NCBI RefSeq assembly: GCF_003334385.1
Contig: NZ_QOWN01000226.1
Length of the DNA: 229 nt
Direction: 5' to 3' (one strand)
Source of the DNA: Escherichia coli
GTDB lineage: Bacteria > Pseudomonadota > Gammaproteobacteria > Enterobacterales > Enterobacteriaceae
The notes beneath the pieces are model-generated. The model worked only from the letters and a program-made list of their open reading frames with translations, was not told where the DNA came from and made no database searches. Of the stretch, positions 1 through 229 are shown in pieces. How positions within the stretch are numbered: the stretch's first letter is position 1; every line of letters begins with the position of its first letter. A program made the translations under genes and the position numbers.

Positions 1-32
1 TAGTCACAAAAAGAAGAAAGTCAAATAATCAA

Positions 33-62
33 ATTGTGCTTAACTGTTTACATCAGCACAAT
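33..62. repeat. Perfect 8-bp inverted repeat ATTGTGCT-N14-AGCACAAT; candidate operator or RNA stem-loop, function unknown
   Basis: Read directly: 33-40 ATTGTGCT is the exact reverse complement of 55-62 AGCACAAT, with a 14-nt spacer at 41-54. I estimate chance occurrence of such a perfect 8-mer pair within about 20 nt in a window this size at under 10%. The stem has only 3 G:C pairs of 8. Confidence 0.55.
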
Positions 63-65
63 CTG

Positions 66-229
66 ATGACCATTGAAGGACGCACTAAATTATTTTCAGC
101 AACCCCTCAGTCTACGAAAATTCTGTATTTGATAATTGTTTTATTTGCTCTATTTTTATGCAGCCATTCTGTTGCTTATAAAAAAGCACCACTATCCGCG
201 CCCTCATCTCAATATCTTTGTCGCCGGAT
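66..229 (+). CDS. Hypothetical small protein, N-terminal 54 codons, 3' end beyond the window; single hydrophobic segment (possible signal peptide or membrane anchor). Start is uncertain: the frame is open from position 3, so the gene may begin upstream of the window.
   Basis: Frame 3 has no stop across 3-229. Using the window base composition I estimate roughly a 1% chance per frame of 75 stop-free codons, an approximation. ATG at 66-68 translates as MTIEGRTKLFSATPQSTK-ILYLIIVLFALFLC-SHSVAYKKAPLSAPSSQYLCRR. Third-position GC is the lowest of the three codon positions (about 28% versus 41% and 46%), as expected for coding sequence in AT-rich DNA. Against: no Shine-Dalgarno motif in the 15 nt before the ATG, the ATG lies in a possible stem, and the hydrophobicity could simply reflect the T-rich tract at 121-180. 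Confidence 0.35.
   Translation, partial: MTIEGRTKLFSATPQSTKILYLIIVLFALFLCSHSVAYKKAPLSAPSSQYLCRR
112..229 (-). CDS. Alternative model (excludes the + strand CDS): C-terminal 38 codons of a hypothetical protein on the - strand, stop TAG at complement of 112-114
   Basis: Minus-strand frame is open from the window edge to TAG (complement of 112-114), translating as ...SGDKDIEMRARIVVLFYKQQNGCIKIEQIKQLSNTEFS*. First codon positions are purine-rich (about 63%) and the - strand is the purine-rich, G>C strand. The stop is followed about 50 nt later by the 33-62 hairpin and a T-rich tract. Against: third-position GC (about 42%) is not the lowest position, and a 38-codon open stretch is only weakly significant (roughly 4% by composition). 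Confidence 0.2.
   Translation of the reverse strand, partial: SGDKDIEMRARIVVLFYKQQNGCIKIEQIKQLSNTEFS

Follow-up and report, generated by a model that had tools for sequence, protein, structure and literature searches.

A tandem octamer repeat upstream of prophage-borne eib genes of Escherichia coli: probably a chance similarity beside an inverted repeat

Two octamers that differ at a single position lie next to each other in a 229-nucleotide stretch of Escherichia coli DNA (hereafter, the window). Are they the half-sites of a regulator, or is their likeness an accident of A+T-rich DNA? The initial annotation of the window had floated the first idea while voicing doubts about it, and its description of the pair was correct: AGTCAAAT is followed immediately by AATCAAAT, the two agree at 7 of 8 positions, and the second overlaps the left arm of a palindrome. 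These octamers and the features around them are listed in Table 1.

Table 1. Positions of the octamers and neighboring features in the window
Feature	Position	Strand	Remark
Half of the CRP-like core TGTGACTA / ACTTCACA (sense)	1-8	-	other half outside the window, L001 5993-6000
Pyrimidine run CUUUCUUCUUUUU (sense)	8-20	-	directly 3' of the extended stem
Octamer 1, AGTCAAAT	19-26	+	between the inverted repeat and the pyrimidine run
AATAAT, -10-like hexamer	24-29	+	spans the octamer junction
Octamer 2, AATCAAAT	27-34	+	28-34 form the outer bases of the left inverted-repeat arm
13-bp inverted repeat, ATCAAATTGTGCT / AGCACAATCTGAT	arms 28-40 and 55-67; 14-nt loop 41-54	-
11-nt tandem duplication site, TGACCATTGAA (plus strand)	66-77		adjoins the right arm of the inverted repeat
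GACC (sense GGUC)	68-71	-	predicted pairing with GACU of octamer 1 (19-22)
114-117-nt insertion/deletion polymorphism	194-199, between 196 and 197

The locus and eib expression

To which locus does the window belong? Among 5426 complete E. coli genomes, 27 contain matches to it, at 71 places in all; these are chromosomal without exception and carry no annotation. It also matches eight phage records, one of them prophage P-EibA (GenBank AF151091, from E. coli ECOR-9), whose positions 3425-3653 are 98.7% identical to it. Each locus that we fetched has the same order of genes: J, lom, a tail fiber gene, a DUF4376 gene (orf-191A), a spacer of 680-800 nt, and a gene annotated as "YadA C-terminal domain." The P-EibA version of this gene is eibA, the gene for an immunoglobulin-binding trimeric autotransporter. 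All of these genes are encoded by the minus strand, and the eib ATG is 265 nt from window position 1 in each locus. Hence, the window represents the distal part of the DNA upstream of prophage eib genes, with the octamers at -283 to -298 from the ATG and the inverted repeat at -292 to -331. P-EibA and the other eib loci of lambdoid prophages form one locus family with the window, and we saw no differences between them. Eib proteins have been linked to serum resistance.

The depositors of AF151091 annotated neither the inverted repeat of the window nor the octamers. They did record a stem-loop on either side of eibA, the upstream one at a distance of 104-141 nt. This upstream stem-loop is a perfect inverted repeat of 11 bp, GAAATTCCGAA / TTCGGAATTTC, whose loop is 16 nt long (5840-5877 in locus L001); it is present in all copies, with substitutions in the loop only. 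Closer still to the gene, the sequence just upstream of the eib start, TGTTGAACTGTTTTATTTGTATACAGATAA (sense; L001 5755-5784), is complementary (85-93%) to three upstream segments of 13-15 nt (L001 5968-5982, 6037-6049, and 6134-6147), among them the loop of the window hairpin and window positions 134-147. Judging by this complementarity, the start region and the upstream segments could pair in a long leader RNA.

Other adhesin genes are found at the same place. Other lambdoid prophages (L101, NZ_AP022811.1 1253075-1256427, and L008) carry different YadA-like adhesin genes after the DUF4376 gene, and their spacers are unrelated to the eib spacer except for ~40-170 nt by the start codon. The presence of different YadA-like genes at the same position marks it as a hot spot for adhesin cassettes. 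Might the hairpin be a cassette or recombination junction? Homology with prophages that lack the region stops inside the DUF4376 gene, and homology with diverged eib-like loci stops ~170 nt upstream of the ATG. Since neither boundary falls at the hairpin, we rejected this idea.

How much upstream DNA does an eib gene need? In the case of eibG, 168 bp of upstream DNA were enough for plasmid complementation (bioRxiv 10.64898/2025.12.25.695649), a result that may owe something to read-through from the vector. The diverged eib-like loci share only ~170 proximal nt with the eib loci, and the segment of the window is absent from them. Taken together, these two observations place the octamers outside the minimal expression unit. 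The best promoter-like site on the sense strand, TTGAAC-17-GATAAT, is found 20-50 nt upstream of the eib ATG, and its GATAAT -10 also occurs in a diverged YadA-like cassette. We found no description of the eib promoter region in the accessible Eib literature. Eib levels are reportedly high in static LB cultures, in stationary-phase cells, and at a growth temperature of 37°C, and low in media that contain glucose (PMC5450701).

The octamer pair and its variation

If the octamers were a functional repeat, we might expect their similarity to stand out from the surrounding sequence. It does not. In dinucleotide-preserving shuffles of the window (n = 5000), a tandem 8-mer with at most one mismatch appeared in 7.3% of cases, and a tandem repeat of similar quality, with a period anywhere from 6 to 12, appeared in 17.5%. 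The similarity of the octamers is therefore not statistically unusual, and the early caution that A-rich repeats are common by chance proved well founded. No direct-repeat family came up in a repeat search of the window. The motif ARTCAAAT occurs 5 times in the complete 50-kb genome of the eib phage PhiR5_1, against 3.95 expected, and a scan of the same genome for a second tandem 16-mer with at most three mismatches returned only the locus itself. A third TCAAAT element, inverted, is present in the window at 127-137 and is changed or lost in many copies; for this reason, we rejected a long-range inverted repeat pairing 24-34 with 127-137.

Are the octamers conserved? We aligned 14 loci from E. 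coli and IMG/VR, and a pattern scan of IMG/VR and metagenomes brought the collection to ~70 copies, 64 of them distinct. Both octamers, along with ~90 surrounding columns, were invariant in the 14 loci. Among the 64 distinct copies, the only variable sites within positions 3-65 were C22>T, seen in one contig, and A23>C, seen in three. Both are in octamer 1, and each leaves the octamers with 6 of 8 positions in common. No variation was seen in octamer 2 or in the arms and loop of the inverted repeat in any of the ~70 copies; the search pattern itself fixed 22 of these bases. Hence, the octamers are not conserved above their surroundings: the flanks are equally invariant, and the sole variable sites in this interval fall in the repeat.

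The conservation check proposed in the initial annotation thus gave a divided answer. Both octamers are indeed present in all ~70 copies, but the whole block is 97-99% identical, which makes their presence uninformative. The 345 nt upstream of the eib ATG are 97.4-99.7% identical between loci L001-L021 (mean, 98.5%), whereas the Eib proteins of these loci are 45-80% identical (mean, 58%). Given this disparity, conservation of the octamers says nothing specific about them. That a noncoding leader should be so much more uniform than the gene that it precedes suggests, from the alignments, either cassette-like recombination or strong constraint. With diversity so low, purifying selection on the octamers would be compatible with their presence in all copies.

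Larger changes occur to the right of the inverted repeat. The TGACCATTGAA site is duplicated in L004, L005, L013, L017, L021, and ~20 metagenome contigs, making up about a quarter to a third of copies. The 114-117-nt polymorphism was seen in L003 (2697-2810), L004, L006, L009, L010, L013, L017, and L021. In the inserted segment, the 17-mer TACGAAAATYCTGTATT (window 113-129) and CTCCCCGTTTTT each occur once more, and on account of these repeats the segment looks like part of an old, diverged duplication. A 31-amino-acid open reading frame on the minus strand (112-207) was rejected as a gene because a 114-nt insertion splits it in many copies.

IbrAB is an activator of eib expression. Could the octamers be direct-repeat half-sites of such an eib-controlling factor, either IbrAB or a response regulator sensitive to static or low-oxygen growth? 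Eib expression is regulated, as described above for static growth, stationary phase, and temperature, and both units occur in all ~70 copies. As in the sites of the OmpR/PhoB family and of ArcA, the window has two adjacent, similar, short units that are A/T rich and distal to the promoter. However, these direct-repeat regulators use a spacing of 10-11 bp, while the octamers are spaced at exactly 8 bp, so that the objection first raised against the pair, its mismatch to the helical repeat, still stands. The sites also differ in that the octamers do not recur in the phage genome, where the motif is at chance frequency and the recurrence check named at the outset fails, and in that natural variants lower rather than maintain the identity of the units. 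Moreover, the repeat is not statistically significant and, at 283-298 nt from the ATG, is outside the 168 bp that suffice for complementation. No IHF consensus (WATCAANNNNTTR) is present at the octamers; allowing one mismatch gave a single match in the window (133-145, minus strand), which is at chance level. The FNR consensus (TTGAT-N4-ATCAA) had no match with up to two mismatches. A regulator with an unusual 8-bp register would be compatible with the bases present. Having found no support for half-sites, we regard this explanation as very unlikely.

We conclude that the octamer pair is probably not an element of its own. Most likely, it is a chance self-similarity of 7 in 8 positions in the A+T-rich distal upstream DNA of prophage-borne eib, and the 8-bp periodicity itself probably has no role.

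The inverted repeat and its predicted fold

If the pair is a chance similarity, to what do its bases belong? They are split between two neighbors. Octamer 2 is the outer part of an inverted-repeat arm, and octamer 1 is a linker that runs from the inverted repeat to the pyrimidine run leading into the CRP-core palindrome. The functional part, if there is any, would be a hairpin on the eib-sense RNA.

The inverted repeat is statistically more unusual than the octamers: 14 of 3000 shuffles (p ~0.005) gave a 13-nt inverted repeat when no more than one mismatch and loops of 3-20 nt were allowed. It is also asymmetric between the strands. In the eib-sense RNA, all 13 of 13 positions pair, one of them as G.U, whereas the plus strand has an A.C mismatch there. 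The folding energy of the 40-nt hairpin is -15.9 kcal/mol on the minus strand versus -10.3 on the plus strand, and the z score of an 80-nt fold is -2.57 versus -0.93.

Octamer 1 reads ATTTGACT on the eib-sense strand. There, pairing of GGUC with its GACU extends the predicted stem by 4 bp across a 5-nt bulge, UAUUU. Overall, the folding energies are -15.9 and -18.6 kcal/mol on the sense strand versus -10.3 and -12.4 on the other strand, an asymmetry that is partly built in, since the program that proposed the octamer 1 extension allows G.U pairs. Natural variation touches this pairing as well: G68>A is found in 14 of the 64 distinct copies, and the pair is kept, as U.G, on the sense strand only. 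The polymorphism thus fits the predicted sense-strand fold. Covariation within the hairpin is uninformative because positions 27-67 are identical in the ~70 copies from E. coli genomes, IMG/VR, and metagenomes.

Is the hairpin a terminator? The predicted sense-strand fold of -18.6 kcal/mol is followed by UUCUUCUUUUU, with which it makes contact only through the bulged extension. The pyrimidine run resembles a terminator tail, though not a canonical one. A canonical Rho-independent terminator was defined by a G+C-rich stem, a loop of 3-8 nt, and a T-run no more than 2 nt from the stem. We rejected this assignment: the loop is 14 nt long, the base of the stem is A-U rich, a scan of the window for intrinsic terminators found none, and the discriminant score was negative (an approximate d'Aubenton-Carafa-type score of -20 to -33). 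Nothing in the window reaches half of the gathering score of any Rfam family, and the 951-nt intergenic region has no Rfam matches.

The hairpin can also be compared with the Rho-independent terminators at moron boundaries in lambdoid phages. Like these, it forms on the sense strand with a U-rich run behind it, and it is placed between late tail fiber genes and an accessory gene with its own proximal promoter-like site. Unlike them, it has a stem that is A-U rich at its base and a 14-nt loop, and its U-run would adjoin the stem only through the bulged 4-bp extension. Octamer 1 would supply the 5-nt bulge and the 4-bp extension of the stem, after which the U-rich run would follow. The predicted fold suggests that the hairpin and U-rich run act as a weak insulator or attenuator between the tail fiber late genes and the eib cassette. 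With a noncanonical hairpin, a negative score, and no match in the terminator scan, this mechanistic half of our explanation is weak.

The CRP-like core and a possible divergent promoter

A second neighbor of the octamers is found at the edge of the window. The sequence TGTGACTAACTTCACA, at L001 5993-6008 (window -7 to 8, sense strand), is a perfect TGTGA-N6-TCACA core. It is centered 264.5 nt upstream of the eib ATG and is 11 nt from octamer 1. Such a core is found once in the 50-kb PhiR5_1 genome against 0.05 expected, and it is kept in 15 of the 15 loci that carry the region of the window. By comparison with known CRP binding sites, the core at the window edge is a perfect match, while the octamers fall outside the 22-bp site. 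From its sequence, this CRP-like site may be functional as well. The reduced Eib levels in glucose-containing media are compatible with a role for it, without being proof.

Perhaps this stretch matters only through its A/T composition, as a nucleation point for H-NS silencing or as an UP-like surface near a distal, CRP-dependent promoter? The similarity of the octamers would then be a by-product of low complexity. The intergenic region and the 5' end of eib have 37% G+C versus 50-55% in the flanks, the perfect CRP core is close by, and the glucose effect (PMC5450701) would fit catabolite control, again with no proof. However, inspection by eye revealed no convincing -10 at the class I or class II distance from the CRP center. 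In addition, the A-tracts are out of phase with the helical repeat. We consider a purely compositional role improbable.

The octamer junction also contains a -10-like hexamer, AATAAT. Together with TAGTCA (1-6) and a 17-nt spacer, it gives a 9/12 promoter-like match on the plus strand. Might this be a promoter divergent from eib and overlapping the CRP-like site? It would make a noncoding RNA of ~250-400 nt that ends at plus-strand-oriented terminators by the DUF4376 gene. The match is invariant in all copies, and no other promoter-like match on the plus strand is conserved across the intergenic region. Furthermore, at distances of 35-190 nt past the right end of the window there are two to four terminator-like hairpins whose T-tails are on the plus strand, against 0.5-0.6 expected. 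However, a 9/12 match is at chance level, with 0.7 expected per window and ~2.4 per 830 nt. CRP-activated promoters have the CRP center at -41.5 or -61.5, whereas here it would be near -36. Prophages whose downstream cassettes are unrelated also have an antisense-oriented terminator behind the DUF4376 gene, so that such a terminator needs no promoter here. Nowhere in the intergenic region are variation and indels more abundant than in the part that this RNA would span. The plus-strand reading frame is disrupted in many copies and lacks homologues elsewhere. Hence, we find a divergent promoter at this site doubtful.

The terminator-like hairpins are located at 6306-6327 and 6390-6409 in L001 and at 6264-6281, 6307-6326, and 6393-6410 in L002. 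They come right after the DUF4376 stop codon, their T-tails are opposite to the tail fiber/eib strand, and their stems are kept while their loops differ between variants. L101, whose YadA-like cassette is a different one, has a hairpin of similar orientation behind its DUF4376 gene, at 1897-1914.

A protein gene on the plus strand across the window, 119-155 codons long in some copies, was rejected on the grounds of its start, its stops, and its homology. Its ATG is ATA in 3 of the 14 aligned loci, and G68>A gives ATA in 14 of the 64 distinct copies. The frame is cut by stops in the group formed by L006, L013, L017, and L021. It had no PHROG match and no tblastn match outside eib loci.

Could the octamers, the 13-bp inverted repeat, and the CRP core instead jointly control eib from a distance, as a module responsive to catabolite state? 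We think this unlikely. Such a module might take the form of a divergent promoter that overlaps the CRP site, uses AATAAT as its -10, and makes a noncoding RNA ending at the antisense-oriented terminators; in another form, it would be a sense-strand attenuator hairpin. If true, it could explain why Eib is made in static LB and much less of it is made with glucose.

Our preferred reading, a chance similarity within eib upstream DNA, means that the octamer repeat can be dropped as a regulatory candidate. The context of the locus is mildly useful, Eib proteins being phage-borne immunoglobulin-binding adhesins. The inverted repeat and the CRP core are testable candidates for the medium- and agitation-dependent expression that has been reported for EibG and other Eib proteins.
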